A program made the translations under genes and the position numbers. The notes below the pieces were generated by a model. That model made no database searches and was not told the DNA's origin. It saw nothing but the letters and a program-made list of their open reading frames with translations. From a virus (lineage: Duplodnaviria; Caudoviricetes): DNA of 64,000 nt. This document shows, piece after piece, positions 1,462 through 47,293 of this stretch. The stretch lies in the IMG/VR virus record IMGVR_UViG_3300031965_000009, positions 1-64,000 of that record. The stretch is one strand, 5' to 3'. Numbering within the stretch: the first letter of the stretch is position 1; every line of letters begins with the position of its first letter.

Positions 1462-3705
1462 ATGGCATATTGCAAGATTGGTTTCTTAGCAAGTGGGTCT
1501 GGTGGAAATGCTGATGGCATTGGCGCTTACGTTCAGGCGCTTGCCGATGCCGATATCTCCCCGGTTGTTTTCTGTAACGATGGTGATGTTGGCATTTCTG
1601 ACGCGATTGCAACCGGCAAGCCTTTTGTAGCAATAGGTCGGATTGTGCGTGACGGTTCAGAACAATATGCCGTCCCTGATTACGACCTCTCTCCTAAAGA
1701 CGCCGCAGAAAAACATTGGGCTAAGATACGACCCTTTTTTCACCCAACTTGGCTGGCGCATAAAGACAAGGTATGGATACAAGTAGTCAATGAAGTAAAC
1801 AAGGAAAAAGCTGGGTGGTTGGGCATGTTCGGCGTGGAAATTGCCATGCTTGCAAATGCTCTTGGCTATAAAGTAGCCATGTTTGCCTGGGCCAGTGGCA
1901 CGCCAGAACCAGAAGCATGGCAGGAGCCAGGCATGCTTGCCTACCTGCGCTACTGCGAGCAGAATCATGACATGGCCGCCGTGGCCGTGCATGAATATGA
2001 TTATGGCATGGAGGGAATGAACAATGTTTACCCATATCATGTAGGCCGGTTCGAGGCATTGTTTGCGGCCTGTGATACTAATGGTATTAAAAGACCACAA
2101 GTATTTATCACAGAGTTTGGTTGGGCTTACACCTCTATCCCATCTCTGGCACAGTGCATGTCTGACATAGACTTTGCCGCAAGATTGTATGCTCAATACG
2201 ATGAAATAAAGGGGGCGGGGATATGGTACTTGGGGCCAGGCTTCTCAGACATAGCAAACAAAGTCAACACGCTTATTGAACCAGTCAAGAACTACACGCT
2301 TGAGACTGTCTTACCAGACCCACAACAAGGAAATGACAACATGCTAATGAACCCATCATTTGAAGAGGGCTTTTATCTCCCAGGCGGGGTGAAAGAATTG
2401 CAAATCCCCAATGACTGGGGGTTCTGGTACGCGGATGAGTCCATACCCAACCCATATGATTCCGAGCCATGGTCTGTGTTTGTCCGGCCAGAGGTAAGAA
2501 CATTGCACAGGGGCTTGTTACCCCCCGACGAGCAGCCCTTGTTTGTCCTTGATGGTGACTATACCTTGAAGATATTCAAGGGGTCAGGCTCTATTTATCA
2601 TGGGCTGGCCCAGGTCATGCCTCGTGGCAAGTGGGAAATGCATGTCAAAGTCTTTCCTGACTTGATTACAGGTTACGACGCAGATGGCGGCAAGATATTT
2701 GCCACACACCCAGACTCATGTATTGTGTGGGTAGAGGTTGACGGCGTGCGTGTTGGGCAAGAGCAAAGACCTGCGGCCGGCGCATGGCAAGAGCTTGTAT
2801 TCGAGCTTGATTTACCCGGTGACTCTGCCGTAGCTATCCTGTTCATGCAGCCCTTCGCCCTGAACAACAACGGCCTGTTTCTTGATGACTGGGAATTGCG
2901 TGAAGTAGTTGACACATGCAATGCACGCGAGCCATATAATCGCGAGGTATGGGTAGCTAACCCAGGCATGAGCCAGGCTGATTACACGGCCCTTGCTGCG
3001 TTGGCATACAGCATGCAGAAGCAGACCATAACCTTCTCGTATGACGATGCCGGCATTGGTTGTGGGTTGGGCATAAAGAAAGCCGTGCTGTTCAACATAG
3101 CAGAAGCCAGACATCAGGAGTTCGTTGACTGGTATGACACATACTACCCCGGCACTGTAGTAGAATTCATGTCTTTCCCACCATCTAATCCTTATTCTCC
3201 CCCGGTTGGTCAGGGTGAAGCTGGTGTATGGCCTGGAGAGTGGGTTGATGCCAACCCATACCTGAACAGGTACTTGCTTGCAGGATCATGGGCCATTCAT
3301 ACAGGCGCAGACCTTAACCTGAACTCGCCGGTATGGAACGCTGACAACAATGCCCCCGTCCATGCCATTGCAGACGGTATTGTAATCTATTCACAGTTAG
3401 TAATTAACAGCAATGGGCAGGTTAGTTCATGGGGCAGGCTCGTTGTCATAGAGCATGATGACGGCGTGTGTTCCCGGTACGGGCACATGCGCACGCTTAA
3501 TGTTTCTGCCGGTCAGAACGTTGTCATGGGGCAGGTGATAGGCACGATTGGGGGAACAGAGTATGGCCTACCAGACCACCTGCATTTTGACATCAGCCTG
3601 TCTGGCATATTGCTTTCTTCTCCCACATATTGGCCTGGAGACAACTTACCTGCCGTGCAAGAGCATTTCGTTGACCCGCATGCATTTATTGTATCAGGTC
3701 GATAA
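1462..3705 (+). CDS. Multidomain lysin: TIM-barrel glycoside hydrolase + CBM-like domain + cell-wall module + M23 peptidase
   Basis: GH-like motifs VVNE, VHEY and FITEFGW. C-terminal M23 motifs HTGAD and YGH...HLHF. ATG at 1462 follows the upstream stop. Confidence 0.75.
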   Translation: MAYCKIGFLASGSGGNADGIGAYVQALADADISPVVFCNDGDVGISDAIATGKPFVAIGRIVRDGSEQYAVPDYDLSPKDAAEKHWAKIRPFFHPTWLAHKDKVWIQVVNEVNKEKAGWLGMFGVEIAMLANALGYKVAMFAWASGTPEPEAWQEPGMLAYLRYCEQNHDMAAVAVHEYDYGMEGMNNVYPYHVGRFEALFAACDTNGIKRPQVFITEFGWAYTSIPSLAQCMSDIDFAARLYAQYDEIKGAGIWYLGPGFSDIANKVNTLIEPVKNYTLETVLPDPQQGNDNMLMNPSFEEGFYLPGGVKELQIPNDWGFWYADESIPNPYDSEPWSVFVRPEVRTLHRGLLPPDEQPLFVLDGDYTLKIFKGSGSIYHGLAQVMPRGKWEMHVKVFPDLITGYDADGGKIFATHPDSCIVWVEVDGVRVGQEQRPAAGAWQELVFELDLPGDSAVAILFMQPFALNNNGLFLDDWELREVVDTCNAREPYNREVWVANPGMSQADYTALAALAYSMQKQTITFSYDDAGIGCGLGIKKAVLFNIAEARHQEFVDWYDTYYPGTVVEFMSFPPSNPYSPPVGQGEAGVWPGEWVDANPYLNRYLLAGSWAIHTGADLNLNSPVWNADNNAPVHAIADGIVIYSQLVINSNGQVSSWGRLVVIEHDDGVCSRYGHMRTLNVSAGQNVVMGQVIGTIGGTEYGLPDHLHFDISLSGILLSSPTYWPGDNLPAVQEHFVDPHAFIVSGR

Positions 3706-4236
3706 GTGTGACCATGCCCTGCCAAGTACAATGCTATTAACGTATCTGTAATCTATACCAGTAACCTCCGCTATGTACCTTTGAGTATATTTCTTCTCTG
3801 AGTACATATCCAATACACGCCGCACTAGCTTCTCGCTATACTTGTTTGCCGGATTATCCTCGCCGGTCTGAGATTGTCCTAAGACCGTGTATCTGTGTTG
3901 TTGGTTCTCTGTCGGGGTCGCCCATTCCAAGTTGTCAATATGATTGTTGTGCTTATCTCCATCGATATGGTTGACCTGATGAGTGTATGTCGGGGGTGGG
4001 CCAAGGAATGTCATTATAACGGCTCTGTGAACATAGGCAACTTTGACTTTCCCAAACTCATCTGATAAGTTATAGGAAAGATACTTCCCCTGCCACCCGG
4101 CTTTAGATTGTTTTAGTATTTTATCTGGAAGTGGCCTTCCGTTTCTCCTTGGTGCTATTCTCTTGCACCGTCCATAGTTGCTAATAATATACAATCCCTC
4201 GTATCCCGGTATTTCTTTCCACGTTTCATTTTTCAT
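3694..4236 (-). CDS. NUMOD4-HNH homing endonuclease
   Basis: NUMOD4 motif WKEIPGYEGLYIISNYG; HNH core VHRAV...VNHIDGDKHNNHIDNLEW. Confidence 0.9.
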   Translation of the reverse strand: MKNETWKEIPGYEGLYIISNYGRCKRIAPRRNGRPLPDKILKQSKAGWQGKYLSYNLSDEFGKVKVAYVHRAVIMTFLGPPPTYTHQVNHIDGDKHNNHIDNLEWATPTENQQHRYTVLGQSQTGEDNPANKYSEKLVRRVLDMYSEKKYTQRYIAEVTGIDYRYVNSIVLGRAWSHLST

Positions 4237-4242
4237 TCTGTT

Positions 4243-4270
4243 ATTATATCACCAATGTAGATAATGTCAA
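4243..4270 (-). promoter_or_regulatory. Sigma70-type promoter, leaderless
   Basis: Minus strand reads TTGACA-16 nt-TATAAT (TG-extended), then 6 nt to the ATG at 4236. Confidence 0.7.
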
Positions 4271-4344
4271 CTCCATACATGAGTAACATTCCATGGCCTT
4301 GGCGGTTACGTAGTCCCAGATGTCATTGACCCGCAACCATATAT

Positions 4345-41375: not shown

Positions 41376-42005
41376 ATGAGGGACACAGCACCAAAGCGAA
41401 ATGAGATTCAAATACTAAATGACCGCAGGCGAACTGCCCAGCTACTGCTTGAAGGGTACACCCATCAGCAAATACGTGATGTACTCGAACAAGAGACTGG
41501 AATTACATTGTCGCGTCGTACAATTACCAATGATGTCGGGGCTATCAAGAAAGACTGGGCCGAGCAGCAAAGGGCCAGCGTCCATGCTCTTGTCAATCAA
41601 GAGATTGACAGGCTGGACTTCAGCGAAGCTGAAGCATGGCGGGCATGGCGGGCCTCATGCGGCGACGAGGTTCAGGAAACTGTCGAGAAGATAGCCAGGT
41701 ACATGAAGCAAGAGGATGGCTACGTACCCGACGAGGATGAATACGAATTAAGGGTTCAGCGCGTGACCCAAATAATCAAGAAGAGCGGTGGCGTAGGCGA
41801 CCCAAGATTCTTTAATATCATCCTCGACCTACAGAAAGAAAGGCGGAAGCTGCTGGGATTGTATGCGCCAAGCAGGTTGGGCATTGATGTCACCACCAAG
41901 TCGGAAATCATTATCAAGGGCTATGCCGTCAAGGACGTGTCGCCTGACGCATGGCCGTCCCTGCCAAGCAATGACATCATCGAGGGAGAGATAGTTGAAC
42001 GGTAA
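41376..42005 (+). CDS. Terminase small subunit-like protein
   Basis: N-terminal HTH; RRKLLGL...SEIII tail; overlaps the large terminase start. Confidence 0.65.
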   Translation: MRDTAPKRNEIQILNDRRRTAQLLLEGYTHQQIRDVLEQETGITLSRRTITNDVGAIKKDWAEQQRASVHALVNQEIDRLDFSEAEAWRAWRASCGDEVQETVEKIARYMKQEDGYVPDEDEYELRVQRVTQIIKKSGGVGDPRFFNIILDLQKERRKLLGLYAPSRLGIDVTTKSEIIIKGYAVKDVSPDAWPSLPSNDIIEGEIVER

Positions 42006-45000
42006 AGCAGACCTGTATAATGGCCAGCGCATGTATCATCCTTCTGCGATGACTACGCACAATTCCACCTACAGGTACATCAACACATTCAACCCCCTGC
42101 CATGGCAGGCCAAGCCATGGGCAGACATCTCGCCTGTCATATTATTTTCGGGCTCGAGGGGAGGTGGAAAAGCGCTCTATATAGACACCGATATTGCCAC
42201 CACCAACGGATATGTTAAAATGAGGGACATATCGGTTGGTGACATAGTGTTTGACGAGCGTGGAAAACAAACAACGGTTACCGAGGTAACTGATGTGATG
42301 CTTGCTAGGCCATGCTATGAAATTAGCTTCTCGACTGGAGAGTCTGTCATCTGTGACGCTAACCACGAATGGGTTGTTGGTATAGCCGGGAACAGGTCGA
42401 AGAGAGTGATTGAGACCGCCGAGACGATGTTTCATAATCAAAAAACCGGGAGGGAGAATAGCTATTCGGTTTCAGTGTGTGGTTCGGTAGAGCACGACGA
42501 AAAGGAACTTCCGGTATCGGCATGGTTGGTTGGATTTCTTATCGGAGATGGGTACCTTAAAAACGTATCTTTCACAACGGCAGATACAGAGATAGCAGAC
42601 AGGGTAGCAAGTGAGCTAGAAGAGGGACACTCGGTCGAACACAGACCTAGCGCCAGCAATAACTATACGTACCAGATACTAACAAACAGAGCAAGGTCTA
42701 AGGATATAGAAGTAAATTCTGGCAGGGTATATCTACACTCCGATGGCAAAAAATACGTAGCCATGGCCAATGGAGATGGGACAGAGGATGGATATAAACG
42801 AGACTCGGAATATTTGGGGATGTTCGATACAGAAGAAGAGGCATGGAACGTTCTCATCGGCCATACCGGAGGAATGAAATTAACTCTGCACGGACATGGT
42901 CTTATATACAACCTGTCTAAACTAAGTCTAAGAGACAAGACATCGGCTACAAAATTTATCCCAGACATCTATAAATATTCCTCTGTGAACCAAAGACTAG
43001 AAGTACTCAGGGGCCTTATGGATGCGGACGGACATATACAACCGGGTCGCGGACGGGCGGAGATAACAGTTATAAGCGAGAGGCTTGCTAATGACATATT
43101 CGAGATAGCGTGCAGTCTAGGAATAAAGGCCCATATCGCTAAGAGAGATATGAAGTTTAACGGCGAGCCATATGATGCGTGGAGAGTACAGTTTACGTCT
43201 GATATTCAAGTATTCTGGTTGCCAAGAAAGGCTAATCTAGTGAAGTCTAAGCTGCGTAAAACTCAATACAGAAGGTATATAACATCAATCAAGAAGGTCG
43301 ATTCTGTTCCTGTAAAATGTATTGAAGTTGACAGTCCGCTTCACTCTTACTTAATCACGAAGTCTCATATTCCAACCCATAACTCCCGTCTTGCTGCCGA
43401 ACGTGCTCATGCCTTCTGCTTGAAATACCCGAACGCTGTTGTGCAGGTCGTGCGCAAGACCAAGTCAAGCTTGAAGAAGTCTGTCCTGCATAACCTGACA
43501 ACCAAGGTCATTGGCGATGATCCCAGGGTCTTGCATCACAAGAATGACAGCATGTTTGTCTACGACAACGGCAGCACGCTCATATACGATGGCATGTCTG
43601 ACCCGGCGGCAAGAGAAAGGATGAAGAGCCGGGAGCCGGACATGGTGTGGATGGAAGAGGCTAAGGACTTTACGGAAGAAGATTACAACGAGATCATAGC
43701 ATTGGTTCGTGGGACGGCCGCCCCATGGAGGCAGATTGTTCTTTCGACGAACCCTGACGGGCCATTGCATTGGATTAACAGAAGGCTTATCTTACAGGAC
43801 GAGGCTAAAGTATACTACAGCGGTGCTAAGGATAACCCGCACCTACCGATAGAGTACATAGAAAGCCTTGAATCATTGACTGGTGTTCAGTACCAGCGCG
43901 AGGTGCTTGGCCTGTGGGTTAGCGGTAGCGGTATTATATTCGACACCTGGAAAGACGATCAGAACGGTAAGAGTAGTAACGTTACGGCCGAAGCAGTCAT
44001 TGACCCGCATGGCGGGGACATTATCTGGGCCATAGACGATGGCTATTCCGGGACGTATGATAGGGAAAGCGGGTATTACACCGCCAATTCTCATCCACGA
44101 GCCATGCTCCTTGCGCAGCGTCGTCCCGACGGCGTGCTTGTCATTGCCGACGAAAGCTATGCCATTGAAACACTGGCAAGCAATCATATAGCCGAGAAGC
44201 TCAAGGACTGGCCCAGGCCGTACATGATCGTGCGGGACAGGGCCGCTGCGTCATTGGACGGGGCATGTCGGGAGAATGGGTTAAGAAATATTATCTACAA
44301 CACCATGCACGTTGACGAATCTATCAAAGAAATGCGCAAGTGGCTGGCCGAAGACCATAACGGCGTCAGGAAAGTGCTTGTCCACCCACGCTGCAAAATG
44401 CTCAGGAGCGAGATGGCCCAGTATTCCATGGATAATGATGGCCGGGTAATCAAGGAGCATGATAATGGCTGCCTTGTTGCCGGAACCATGGTGGCTACGC
44501 CAGACGGAGAAAAGAAAATAGAAGACATAGTGTCTGGTGACATGGTCATGACAAGACTTGGCCCAAGGCCCGTTGAAGTTTCGTCCATGACGGACTCAGA
44601 CGCAGAAATATGGCGATTAGAATTAAGTGACGGAAGATTTATAGAGGGTACAGGTAATCACCCAATATATGTGAAGGGTGCTGGATTCGTTGAATTGCAC
44701 TCCATGTCTCCTGGTGATACAATAGATTGCATATCTAATTACATCAGGAGAAACGAATGTCGAAATCAGAAGTTATCACTTACGGGGGAATCAGATTCCG
44801 GCGATACCCAAACTCTAAAAGATGGGCAAACAAATCGTATTATTCCCCAGGAATTGCTGACAGGCAACGGGGAATCGAGAGCCTTCACAGAGAGATTTAC
44901 AAGGACAATTTTGGGCCAATTCCAGATGGCGCACACATCCATCACGCGGATGGCAACCCGCTTAATAATGACCCAAGCAATCTTGTTTCCGTCTCTAGTA

Positions 45001-45549
45001 ACAGCGAACACCAGAAGCTTCATGCTGGCGAAAGAGTATACCATCCACCAACCAGGGCAGCCCTTTCGGCCGCTGCCGAATGGCACAGAAGCGACGAGGG
45101 ACGAGCATGGCACAGAGAACATGGTAAGAACTCCTGGATTGGAAGAGAACCAATTACCCTATCGTGCAACCAGTGCGGATCAAGCTACGAAACACTTGAC
45201 AGGAAGGGAACAAATAGATTCTGTTCAAACGCCTGCAAGTCCTCATTTAGAAGAGCCTCTGCCGTCGATGACGAAGAGAGGATATGCGAGTGGTGCGGAG
45301 CAGAGTTCTCAATCAATAAATACAGAAAAACAAGGACGTGCACAAGATCGTGTGCTGCGTACATACGCAACAGGGAAAAGAAAACCGGTATATAACCTGG
45401 CCGTCGCTGATAATCACGAATTCTTCGCTAATGGTATTTTAACCCATAACTGCGACGCACTTCGTTATCTCATATGGAACGAGTCATACGGCAGGGGTAG
45501 AAAGATTGATGTTGTATCATGGTCACAAATAGAGAGGGCACATGCCTAA
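41995..45549 (+). CDS. terL: Terminase large subunit with two inteins
   Basis: Spliced Walker A GSRGGGK|S; Walker B VWMEEA; STNPDGP; C-terminal nuclease ...C-DALRY. Confidence 0.92.
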   Translation: MNGKADLYNGQRMYHPSAMTTHNSTYRYINTFNPLPWQAKPWADISPVILFSGSRGGGKALYIDTDIATTNGYVKMRDISVGDIVFDERGKQTTVTEVTDVMLARPCYEISFSTGESVICDANHEWVVGIAGNRSKRVIETAETMFHNQKTGRENSYSVSVCGSVEHDEKELPVSAWLVGFLIGDGYLKNVSFTTADTEIADRVASELEEGHSVEHRPSASNNYTYQILTNRARSKDIEVNSGRVYLHSDGKKYVAMANGDGTEDGYKRDSEYLGMFDTEEEAWNVLIGHTGGMKLTLHGHGLIYNLSKLSLRDKTSATKFIPDIYKYSSVNQRLEVLRGLMDADGHIQPGRGRAEITVISERLANDIFEIACSLGIKAHIAKRDMKFNGEPYDAWRVQFTSDIQVFWLPRKANLVKSKLRKTQYRRYITSIKKVDSVPVKCIEVDSPLHSYLITKSHIPTHNSRLAAERAHAFCLKYPNAVVQVVRKTKSSLKKSVLHNLTTKVIGDDPRVLHHKNDSMFVYDNGSTLIYDGMSDPAARERMKSREPDMVWMEEAKDFTEEDYNEIIALVRGTAAPWRQIVLSTNPDGPLHWINRRLILQDEAKVYYSGAKDNPHLPIEYIESLESLTGVQYQREVLGLWVSGSGIIFDTWKDDQNGKSSNVTAEAVIDPHGGDIIWAIDDGYSGTYDRESGYYTANSHPRAMLLAQRRPDGVLVIADESYAIETLASNHIAEKLKDWPRPYMIVRDRAAASLDGACRENGLRNIIYNTMHVDESIKEMRKWLAEDHNGVRKVLVHPRCKMLRSEMAQYSMDNDGRVIKEHDNGCLVAGTMVATPDGEKKIEDIVSGDMVMTRLGPRPVEVSSMTDSDAEIWRLELSDGRFIEGTGNHPIYVKGAGFVELHSMSPGDTIDCISNYIRRNECRNQKLSLTGESDSGDTQTLKDGQTNRIIPQELLTGNGESRAFTERFTRTILGQFQMAHTSITRMATRLIMTQAILFPSLVTANTRSFMLAKEYTIHQPGQPFRPLPNGTEATRDEHGTENMVRTPGLEENQLPYRATSADQATKHLTGREQIDSVQTPASPHLEEPLPSMTKRGYASGAEQSSQSINTEKQGRAQDRVLRTYATGKRKPVYNLAVADNHEFFANGILTHNCDALRYLIWNESYGRGRKIDVVSWSQIERAHA
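42172..43383 (+). mobile_element. Intein 1 (Ala1, class 3-type) with LAGLIDADG endonuclease
   Basis: Starts ALYIDT; block B ANHEW; block F VKCIEV; ends IPTHN|S; motifs GFLIGDG and GLMDADG. Confidence 0.9.
44470..45450 (+). mobile_element. Intein 2 (Cys1, class 1)
   Basis: CLVAGT...TGNHP...VYNLAV...ILTHN|C. Confidence 0.9.
44757..45395 (+). CDS. HNH endonuclease overprinted out of frame within intein 2
   Basis: Own RBS AGGAG (44746-44750), ATG and TAA; LHREIY...IHHADGNPLNNDPSNL; C-terminal CxxC Zn fingers. Confidence 0.85.
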   Translation: MSKSEVITYGGIRFRRYPNSKRWANKSYYSPGIADRQRGIESLHREIYKDNFGPIPDGAHIHHADGNPLNNDPSNLVSVSSNSEHQKLHAGERVYHPPTRAALSAAAEWHRSDEGRAWHREHGKNSWIGREPITLSCNQCGSSYETLDRKGTNRFCSNACKSSFRRASAVDDEERICEWCGAEFSINKYRKTRTCTRSCAAYIRNREKKTGI

Positions 45550-47293
45550 TAGTCATTTATTAACACAAGTTTCAGAGACAAGGGAAGAAGCTACAGGCTT
45601 CGTGCCCCAAGACCCACTTGCTTCCACGAGCGTGCTGTCATGGCTTGTTCGGGCAGGCGAGCTCTTGCCACCATGGTGGTCACCTCGCCGCGATACAGCC
45701 CTTGCCAGCCTGTGGAAACAGTCCGGCCATCTAAGCTCCGCCGTCTATAACGCTCAGGCCAAGCTGGCAGGCATTCCATTCGAGATAGTGCCATCAGACC
45801 CAAGCAACATGGATCATGCCAAGCTAGCCGAAGAGATGACCGACTCGCTGCTGTTCATGTCTGAGTTTGGACAGGGTTGGCTGGTGGCATACGAGAAGTT
45901 CATAGAAGACCTTCTTACACAAGATAACGGAGCCTTTTTTGAAATCATTGGTAGGGGTGATGCTGATGGCCCTATTGTTGGCAGGCCGTTGGCCGTAAGA
46001 CATCTTGACAGCAGTAAATGCACCCGCACAGGCTCGCCTGAATTCCCTGTCGTTTATACCGGGGATGATAACAAGCGATACAAAATGCACTGGACAAGAG
46101 TCATAACCATGTCGCAGATGCCAAGCAGCATGGCTGAAATGAACGGCGTAGGTTTCAGCGCCGTCTCTCGTTCGGCTAACATAGCCCAAATCATGATCGA
46201 CGCCATGATCTACAAGCAAGAGAAGCTTGGTACCAGGCCGCAGAACCAGCTTATCCTGGGCAAGGGCATAACAGGCGAGCAGATCATGGATGCTTTCTGG
46301 TTAGGTGAAGAGAGCGCTAACAATGAATCCAGGAAGAGGTTTGCCAAGACCGTGGCCATTGGCTCTGAGAACCCTGACATCGGTATCGACGTTATCCCAT
46401 TGGGTCATAAAGACCCGTTCGATGAAGAGCAGACCATTAACATGGGCATGTTCGCCATTGCCGCCGCCTTCGGCCTTGATGCGTCTGAACTCTGGCCTAC
46501 TGGGTCAGGCAGCACGAACAAGGCTGACTCAGCCTTGCGTCGTCTGCGTTCTCGTGGCAAGTTACCGGCCCAGACAGCAGCCTCTCTCGAAGCCCAATTT
46601 AACATGAAGTTCATGCCCACTGACAGCAATGGGCAACCGTTATTGCGCATGCGCTTTGACTTCAAGGACGACGAAGAAGACCAGCAGCGGGCGCTTATCC
46701 GCGACATTCGTTCCCGTAACAGGGAGCGTGACCTGGCGTCAGGAGCCATGACCATCCGCATTGCCCGGCAACGCATGATGGATGACGGCGATGTTAATCG
46801 CAGCGAATTTAACATGATGGAGATTGACGAAGGTAGATTGCCTAATGGGCAGGAGGTCGGGGTCTTGTTCTTCTCTGACGAGCCTGTATTTGAAAGGCAC
46901 TTGTCAGGCGTTAGCGACCTGCTCATCATCAGGGATCATGAACGCGAAGACTCTATGATAGAGTTAGAGAAAGTAAAGAGCGGGGTGCTGCGCGAACTAG
47001 CCAAGACAACCAGCGACAAGAAAACGCAGCAGTTAAAGATGGCATGTTCTGCCCTCAACTGGCTGCATGACCAATACGAGGTTGTCGGTCAGAACGAATT
47101 CTTCGACAAGATTCCACCAGGAATGCGTCGGTTCACGACAGACTCTATCTACCAGCAGCGCACAGATTTAAGGGGGGACAGCAATGGCACAGCCAGCGGT
47201 GATACGGATCAAGCCGATACTTCCGGGCAAGATGAACAGCAAGCTACTGGACAAAGTAATACGACAAGCACTGTGGAAGGAAATTCAAACTGA
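45542..47293 (+). CDS. Portal protein
   Basis: 583 aa directly after terL; EDLLTQDNGAFFEI and LRHLDS...IAAAFG resemble portal segments. Confidence 0.8.
   Translation: MPNSHLLTQVSETREEATGFVPQDPLASTSVLSWLVRAGELLPPWWSPRRDTALASLWKQSGHLSSAVYNAQAKLAGIPFEIVPSDPSNMDHAKLAEEMTDSLLFMSEFGQGWLVAYEKFIEDLLTQDNGAFFEIIGRGDADGPIVGRPLAVRHLDSSKCTRTGSPEFPVVYTGDDNKRYKMHWTRVITMSQMPSSMAEMNGVGFSAVSRSANIAQIMIDAMIYKQEKLGTRPQNQLILGKGITGEQIMDAFWLGEESANNESRKRFAKTVAIGSENPDIGIDVIPLGHKDPFDEEQTINMGMFAIAAAFGLDASELWPTGSGSTNKADSALRRLRSRGKLPAQTAASLEAQFNMKFMPTDSNGQPLLRMRFDFKDDEEDQQRALIRDIRSRNRERDLASGAMTIRIARQRMMDDGDVNRSEFNMMEIDEGRLPNGQEVGVLFFSDEPVFERHLSGVSDLLIIRDHEREDSMIELEKVKSGVLRELAKTTSDKKTQQLKMACSALNWLHDQYEVVGQNEFFDKIPPGMRRFTTDSIYQQRTDLRGDSNGTASGDTDQADTSGQDEQQATGQSNTTSTVEGNSN

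Follow-up and report, generated by a model that had tools for sequence, protein, structure and literature searches.

The window analysed here is a 64,000-nucleotide stretch of a caudoviricete virus (positions 1 to 64,000 of the 79-kb IMG/VR virus record IMGVR_UViG_3300031965_000009), and we focus on its large terminase gene, terL, on an intein within that gene and on an HNH endonuclease gene that lies inside the intein in a different reading frame. Based on the open reading frame (ORF) list and its translation, the TerL precursor is encoded on the plus strand at positions 41995–45549 as a single open frame of 1,184 amino acids containing two inteins. Without the inteins, terL encodes a 453-residue extein, with Pfam matches to Terminase_3 (E = 5.9e-18) and Terminase_6N (E = 6.8e-9). 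The second intein (intein 2; 44470–45450, plus strand; TerL residues 826–1152) is 327 residues long and of the class 1 type. Within it, on the same strand and at an offset of +2 to terL, the HNH endonuclease gene (44757–45395) encodes 212 residues followed by a TAA stop codon, which falls right at the start of the C-terminal splicing block of the intein.

Intein 2 displays the sequence features of class 1 inteins, namely Cys1 (CLVAGTMV), TGNH in block B (GTGNHP), a C terminus reading ...GILTHN and a Cys at position +1, and it is inserted into the nuclease-domain motif of TerL, between ...EHDNG and CDALRY.... Pfam matches were obtained to Hint_2 (30–38 bits versus a cut-off of 28.4), Intein_splicing and PT-HINT, and the intein was aligned with 19 homologous inteins at the same site. 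In the AlphaFold model, the N-terminal splicing domain (44470–44751, plus strand; intein residues 1–94, blocks A and B) has a predicted local distance difference test score (pLDDT) of 80–96, and the C-terminal splicing domain (45340–45450, plus strand; residues 291–327, blocks F and G, ...VYNLAVADNHEFFANGILTHN) a pLDDT of 85–95. Comparison of the model with solved splicing domains (the gp41-1, DnaB and RecA inteins) gave Foldseek E values of 2e-6 to 1e-4 at a probability of 1.0, and the N- and C-terminal parts together are predicted to adopt a Hint fold. Between them lies a spacer of ~196 residues (44752–45339, plus strand; residues 95–290) that is stop-free in the terL frame, has no predicted fold (pLDDT 27–45), sits in the usual slot of an in-frame endonuclease domain and is nearly coextensive with the HNH overlap. 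These results uphold a first-pass annotation of the window, made from the sequence alone, which had described intact class 1 splicing blocks at 44470–45450 around a centre of 'unstructured filler'.

The HNH ORF was identified by matches to Pfam HNH_3 (PF13392; E = 4.6e-12; 45.8 bits versus a cut-off of 24.8) and to PHROG 15471, 'HNH endonuclease' (E = 1.7e-40), and its protein was modelled by AlphaFold, using an alignment of homologues, with a mean pLDDT of 92.9. The protein is predicted to have an N-terminal part that resembles I-HmuI and contains the HNH motif, with two Cys4 zinc modules on its C-terminal side. For the N-terminal 95 residues the best structural match is I-HmuI (1U3E; VIA-align Z = 7.0, root-mean-square deviation 3.1 over 77 residues; Z = 4.4 for the next row), and the profile of the HNH family also matches 1U3E (E = 0.0015); a Foldseek search of the full model, which is elongated and multi-domain, found no match in the PDB at E ≤ 0.001. 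The Pfam stretch defines the catalytic core (44883–45002, plus strand; residues 43–82). In an alignment of 23 homologues, residues H62, H63, N70, N71, N75 and H85 are invariant, and the model places this conserved His...Asn...His motif on a predicted beta-beta-alpha-metal fold. The two zinc-ribbon/FCS-like modules (45165–45353, plus strand) are formed by C137, C140, C156 and C160 and by C177, C180, C195 and C199. All eight cysteines are invariant or nearly so among the same homologues, and with weak zf-FCS matches and a structural match to an FCS zinc finger (Z = 3.8) the modules probably bind DNA. A weak tblastn match (E = 0.05) to the zinc-module part (HNH residues 133–208) was also seen in the C1 mycobacteriophage Lukilu (KX831080, 50599–50817). 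The Lukilu thymidylate synthase is listed with an in-frame HNH intein in a table of Gosselin et al. (bioRxiv 10.1101/2025.01.02.630785), and the zinc-ribbon module may be shared.

Neither the terL frame nor the HNH frame contains a stop codon anywhere in the overlap, as the first-pass annotation had observed, and the third frame of the same strand contains 13. When the synonymous codons of the HNH gene were permuted, the terL frame remained stop-free in 0.96% of 5,000 trials, and this null is conservative because the HNH gene is already poor in stop-prone codons. Sequence accuracy was assessed by comparison of assembled contigs. The soil run from which the record probably derives was assembled separately in Logan, and this assembly contains a 79-kb contig (k-mer depth 38) that is identical over 44000–45800 with zero indels. 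Another study contributes a 151-nucleotide contig that matches the overlap exactly. The dual-frame layout is thereby confirmed as genuine, beyond chance and not an artefact of assembly, and, as the first-pass annotation had suggested, the HNH endonuclease is a separate gene and not an in-frame domain of the intein. In soil metagenomes of two further runs (X2 and X3, 2025), both from other studies, there are 151-nucleotide contigs identical or nearly identical to window positions 44332–44482, 45142–45292 and 45437–45587, and the phage or a very close relative is therefore present in further soil samples.

Relatives of the element and selection in the two frames

We searched for relatives with the same layout at the nucleotide and protein levels. 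Positions 44300–45600 had zero blastn matches among GenBank phages; tblastn with the HNH protein identified 63 GenBank phage records, and a scan of IMG/VR identified 59 further loci. From these, 54 loci were examined, comprising the IMG/VR loci with substantial HNH matches, five GenBank loci and the window itself. At 40 of the 54 loci (26 distinct sequences), the HNH gene lies at an offset of +2 inside a long terL-frame ORF of up to ~870 residues where complete, hereafter the contiguous form. This overlap, which the first-pass annotation had proposed to look for in homologous inteins, is found in four GenBank phages: Acinetobacter phage Highwayman, Tetrasphaera phage TJE1, Clostridium phage phiCDHM19 and a Rhodobacteraceae phage. 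In each of them the HNH match falls within the annotated terL at offset +2 with both frames open, and gene callers annotate the long terL ORF only, with the result that the nuclease gene is missed. Functional splicing of the terL intein would be expected in these deposited phages, if viable, because terL is essential.

The contiguous forms are uniform in their arrangement: the HNH gene always lies between the splicing blocks, and the intein always lies at one terL site. Their inteins are 270–343 residues long and are inserted at the same terL motif; all retain Cys1 and a histidine in block B, and they end in (H/S)N or Q, with Cys, Thr or Ser as the next residue. The HNH ORF is intact in 26 of 26 distinct contiguous forms at 35–45% identity, and no in-frame HNH fusion was found among them. 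The layout is widespread, and the window is one member of a large family rather than the one-off element it had seemed. One sub-group of contiguous inteins (L035–L043 and L052) ends in ...AAQ before Cys+1, not in HN. The HNH ORF is identical in the ten contigs of this sub-group, which come from different samples, suggesting a lineage that is abundant or has spread recently.

To describe selection in each frame, we compared contiguous with non-contiguous homologues. A first grouping of the loci into 'embedded' and 'free' had been set by frame openness, which is circular as a test, and the loci were regrouped by the presence of flanking intein halves; most of those first labelled 'free' are fractured terL genes, in which the HNH gene is flanked by the halves of a split intein. 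The number of terL-frame stops is zero in 26 of 26 contiguous forms, three to eight in split-intein-flanked homologues and six to 12 in free-standing ones, with an average of 15–20 stops in the other same-strand frame for both contiguous and non-contiguous groups. The dipeptide Met-(I/M/T/N/K), which forces a TGA in the terL frame, is absent from the 26 contiguous forms and occurs 11 times in the ten others, and the host frame therefore constrains the protein sequence of the nuclease. Only the +2 offset was seen. In non-contiguous homologues, the host frame implied by this offset has ~6 stops versus ~20 in the other frame, and the preference may have arisen because fewer stops have to be purged at +2 than in the other alternative frame.

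Substitutions are likewise distributed unevenly between the frames. Differences at HNH codon positions 1, 2 and 3 number 31, 19 and 53 for close pairs and 26471, 26187 and 37956 for distant pairs, and the excess thus sits at HNH position 3, which is terL position 2. Ratios of nonsynonymous to synonymous substitution rates (dN/dS) were estimated by the Nei–Gojobori method. Over the overlap, dN/dS is 0.1–0.15 in the HNH frame (pairs up to saturation) and 1.15–2.4 in the terL frame; in the flanking splicing domains, the terL frame has a dN/dS of about 0.1. The HNH frame is under purifying selection, and the terL frame of the overlap is merely kept stop-free. The per-frame test put forward in the first-pass annotation accordingly favours a functional HNH gene paired with a spacer that need only stay open.

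These patterns argue against the HNH ORF being a silent relic, in which a free-standing or once in-frame endonuclease gene, unexpressed and unneeded, is decaying inside what has become in effect a mini-intein whose spacer is junk. Decay after fixation is common among homing endonuclease genes, an established observation that Gosselin et al. discuss (bioRxiv 10.1101/2025.01.02.630785), and the Shine–Dalgarno-like motifs of some relatives are weak, as a relic would predict. However, a relic is at odds with the low dN/dS of the HNH frame, with catalytic and zinc ligands that are invariant or nearly so, with retained start codons and with the intact ORF in every distinct contiguous form, since an unexpressed ORF would not stay open at such divergence. 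We therefore regard decay as improbable.

Mobility and alternative states of the element

Conservation of the element was compared with that of its host gene using BLASTP. The window HNH protein matches its relatives with E values of 1e-22 to 1e-52 and the window splicing domains mostly with 1e-5 to 1e-39 (three of 19 weaker or undetected), whereas mostly no similarity is detectable in the TerL extein over the 300 residues that precede the intein. The insert is better conserved than the essential gene that hosts it and occupies one catalytic motif in very different terminases, which indicates that intein and HNH gene have spread horizontally as a unit. An element that outconserves its host, resides in unrelated terL alleles and keeps to one site has the pattern of conservation and spread expected of a homing endonuclease.

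Besides the contiguous form, the HNH gene occurs in free-standing and fractured states. The closest HNH relative of the window by sequence (L007; 48–50% identity) is free-standing, with the portal gene on one side and, on the other, an intein-less terL whose ...HHVDALRY... motif is intact. Other free-standing homologues are found in Acinetobacter phage BP10, before terS and beside an intein-less terL, and among tail genes (L018). In the L007 contig, a downstream head-morphogenesis-like gene (3335–4324) contains a look-alike of a Hint-type intein start (...DECDL followed by CVVPGTLIEG...). Fractured terL genes with an HNH homologue were found at L010, L012/13, L017, L019, L021/22 and L023–25/44. 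Here the order is terL-N with the intein N-half, a stop codon, the HNH gene and then a short ORF, comprising the intein C-half and the terL C-extein, that overlaps the 3' end of the HNH gene. Candidate starts of this short ORF yield C-halves of ~35–65 residues. At L019 and L010, the intein N-half and C-half are in different frames.

The distribution of these states also bears on whether the HNH protein is expressed but serves the phage, for example as a terminase-associated packaging nuclease that is merely housed in the intein. Terminase-adjacent HNH proteins are known packaging cofactors in many phages (PMC3592412), and two of the free-standing homologues belong to the packaging module: that of BP10 precedes terS, and that of L007 separates terL from the portal gene. 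In contrast, the free-standing homologue L018 is in a tail-gene region, the HNH gene of the window occupies the exact slot of an intein endonuclease, and its homologues also lie between split-intein halves, as in fractured genes. Furthermore, the best structural and profile match is a homing endonuclease, I-HmuI, and the far better conservation of the element than of its unrelated terL hosts fits a selfish mobile unit. A role in packaging is thus about as improbable as decay.

In an unrooted tree of HNH proteins, the fractured forms compose one supported clade nested among contiguous forms, and the states interleave, with at least two state switches (four by parsimony). The tree has many long branches, and since its drawing and the nearest-neighbour list disagree on the window, the placement of the window was not used. 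Host-frame stop counts are bimodal, at either zero or three and more, suggesting that a lineage either purges all stops, to the point of excluding certain dipeptides from the nuclease, and retains cis-splicing or falls to trans-splicing. One tentative view, which we put forward as possible and hold with less than even confidence, is that a single ancient terL intein/HNH element has two stable end states maintained by selection, of which the overprinted state is one and not a short-lived intermediate; that the element has repeatedly interconverted between free-standing, split and overprinted forms at or beside one terL site; and that HNH translation in the overprinted state may be gated by translation of terL. 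The first-pass annotation had proposed that a free-standing endonuclease invaded a mini-intein. Free-standing homologues do exist (L007 and BP10), as this proposal requires; the direction it assumes cannot be read from an unrooted tree with interleaved states.

Expression signals and proposed mechanism

A Shine–Dalgarno-like sequence, AGGAGA (44746–44751, plus strand), lies 5 nucleotides before the HNH ATG and is predicted to form an anti-Shine–Dalgarno duplex of -7.4 kcal/mol. Six sense codons 5' of the ATG, a TAA in the HNH frame (44736–44738, plus strand) closes that frame toward the N-terminal splicing domain. The ribosome-binding site, ATG, TAA and zinc fingers that the first-pass annotation had assigned to the +2 frame at 44757–45395 are all found at the positions it gave. 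Every relative retains a start codon, mostly ATG, with an HNH-frame stop 0–12 codons upstream in most, and many have a purine-rich, Shine–Dalgarno-like run before it. A conserved start after an HNH-frame stop, with a frequent Shine–Dalgarno-like run, fits separate translation of the HNH gene. In the window, the Shine–Dalgarno sequence is also predicted to be paired with upstream UCUCCUGGUG in an RNA hairpin (44707–44751, plus strand) that is present in both the minimum free energy and centroid structures. Its unpaired probability is 0.09 versus 0.49 in shuffled sequences, and none of 30 shuffles reached a value as low.

The same signals argue against production of the HNH protein by -1 ribosomal frameshifting from terL, as a fusion of TerL-N, intein-N and HNH without separate initiation. 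An offset of +2 equals -1, which is the usual direction of programmed frameshifts in phages, but an HNH-frame stop lies 0–12 codons before the start in most relatives and six sense codons before it in the window. The slippery heptamer X XXY YYZ is also absent from 44690–44765, and every relative has a start codon, in many cases together with a Shine–Dalgarno-like run. We consider this explanation very unlikely. Lastly, while the window is a metagenome-assembled contig, displacement of an in-frame HNH domain by two compensating indels is practically excluded by the identical independent assembly and second-study contig, by the same offset in 26 distinct sequences including GenBank phages and by the stop codons at either end of the HNH frame.

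Taken together, it is probable that intein 2 is contiguous and splicing-competent, that its homing endonuclease is a separate +2-frame gene located between the splicing domains, with the HNH protein initiated internally, and that the element is mobile as a unit. The dual coding is observed directly, as are its conservation among relatives and the contrasting selection on the two frames, and the folds are predicted; from these we infer expression of the HNH gene, splicing, the cleavage target and homing as follows. Ribosomes translating terL would read the overlap as an unstructured spacer of ~196 residues, for which the sole need is the lack of a stop codon. Protein splicing would then remove the whole 327-residue intein, including the spacer, and restore the nuclease motif of the terminase. 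Internal initiation on this late mRNA, at the Shine–Dalgarno sequence and ATG of the HNH gene (44746–44759), would yield the HNH protein, probably at a low level because the Shine–Dalgarno sequence is paired in a hairpin and elongating ribosomes pass over the site. In the window, elongating terL ribosomes would open the hairpin (44707–44751), and nuclease dosage would in this way be tied to late expression. The most likely target of the HNH protein is a terL allele that lacks the intein, cut close to the insertion site, and repair after the cut would copy intein and HNH gene jointly, as a single mobile unit.

Several points weigh against this reading. Initiation within a translated ORF is expected to be inefficient. 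The hairpin that sequesters the Shine–Dalgarno sequence is strong in the window and some relatives only and is not a family-wide feature, the Shine–Dalgarno-like motif is weak in some relatives (L026, L033 and L046), and a consensus scan for promoters and terminators found neither a sigma-70-like promoter nor a terminator on the plus strand at 44200–45700. Splicing is assumed to tolerate the 196-residue insert that is predicted to be disordered. Finally, a scan of IMG/VR with the terL extein found no relative of the window terL, and hence no close intein-less one, and presence/absence polymorphism, the classic sign of homing, is therefore not demonstrable in this lineage.

Comparison with known inteins and overprinted nucleases

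How inteins acquire homing endonucleases is a long-standing question, for which a 'splicing first' model has been advanced. The element described here bears on it because one nuclease gene, at one site of an essential gene, exists in three homologous states (free-standing, between split-intein halves and overprinted in a contiguous intein). As the overprinted form is present in deposited phages (TJE1, phiCDHM19 and Highwayman), the proposed pathway is testable at the bench. The overlap is also a clean case of overprinting in nature: selection on one frame acts only against stops, with a measurable effect on the amino acids of the other.

The first-pass annotation had taken the arrangement to be undescribed. 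This was not the case: Gosselin, Arsenault and Gogarten (2025; bioRxiv 10.1101/2025.01.02.630785) reported the architecture for actinophage inteins, many of them in TerL, with an endonuclease VII-like nuclease 'in reading frame 3 relative to the intein', and proposed the same origin by invasion of an intein by a free-standing endonuclease gene. We checked gene 2 of Gordonia phage Affeca, in which terL occupies 514–2901 and the nuclease ORF 1386–1841 at offset +2 (Pfam Endonuclease_7, E = 1.5e-19). These inteins resemble intein 2 in being contiguous terL inteins with a same-strand +2 nuclease ORF between the splicing blocks and an intein frame that is stop-free and unstructured. The Affeca endonuclease VII ORF (locus L066) and the window HNH ORF are unrelated, and the low number of stops may explain why both are at +2.

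The two sets of inteins differ in several respects. The nuclease family is Endonuclease_7 there versus HNH_3 here: the window ORF has no Endonuclease_7 match even at E = 10, and BLASTP found no similarity to the Affeca ORF. The insertion site is the ATPase motif TRWHEDD in Affeca (based on our reading of the translation) versus the nuclease-domain motif here. The cases in the preprint are from actinophages in PhagesDB, whereas the HNH family is found in Acinetobacter, Clostridium, Tetrasphaera and Rhodobacteraceae phages and in many metagenomic contigs. The sections of the preprint that were consulted contain no per-frame selection analysis such as the one given here. The window therefore has the out-of-frame-endonuclease intein architecture of Gosselin et al. 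and lies outside their endonuclease VII family (IPR004211 / PF02945). Full-text literature searches found no published report of the HNH_3 family in terL inteins.

In fractured genes, described by Dassa et al. in 2009 (PMC2677866), the two halves of a split intein are separated by a free-standing endonuclease gene; the nucleases in that study were GIY-YIG and Vsr-like, and fracturing by HNH nucleases was only predicted. The window shares with them an endonuclease gene that has its own translation signals, occupies the intein slot and overlaps the intein C-part at its 3' end. It differs in that the host frame is unbroken (41995–45549), yielding one precursor for presumed cis-splicing, and the gene is thus not fractured. 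The fractured layout itself is present, here with an HNH nuclease, at homologous loci L010, L012, L017, L019, L021 and L023. A further parallel is the ShiLan domain, for which Arsenault et al. (2025; PMC11855218) described an HNH concealed out of frame within a DNA methylase of a phage. There too the host ORF stays stop-free although a different frame of it encodes an HNH gene, but no intein is involved and the insert is thought to be retained in the host protein, while the insert in the window is flanked by splicing domains and should be removed.

Canonical in-frame HNH inteins and I-HmuI-type HNH enzymes belong to the same nuclease superfamily and have the same presumed role, but the endonuclease of the window is outside the intein polypeptide and not in an intron. 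We found no in-frame homologue of the window HNH protein. The in-frame HNH intein in terL of Gordonia phage Clown, listed by Gosselin et al., was considered as an in-frame relative and rejected as unrelated and at another site. For context, intein 1 of the window terL (42172–43383, plus strand; TerL residues 60–463) is inserted in the Walker A P-loop, between GGGK and S, and contains an in-frame LAGLIDADG endonuclease (Pfam LAGLIDADG_3, E = 2.8e-10; Hom_end, E = 1.4e-5). Its first residue is Ala, not Cys or Ser, and with NHEW in block B, a Cys in block F and a THN end it has class-3-like features. A single terL thus houses a canonical in-frame endonuclease in intein 1 and an out-of-frame one in intein 2. 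For intein 2, the kind of layout has been known since 2025, and the family described here differs from the reported cases in nuclease family, insertion site and host range.

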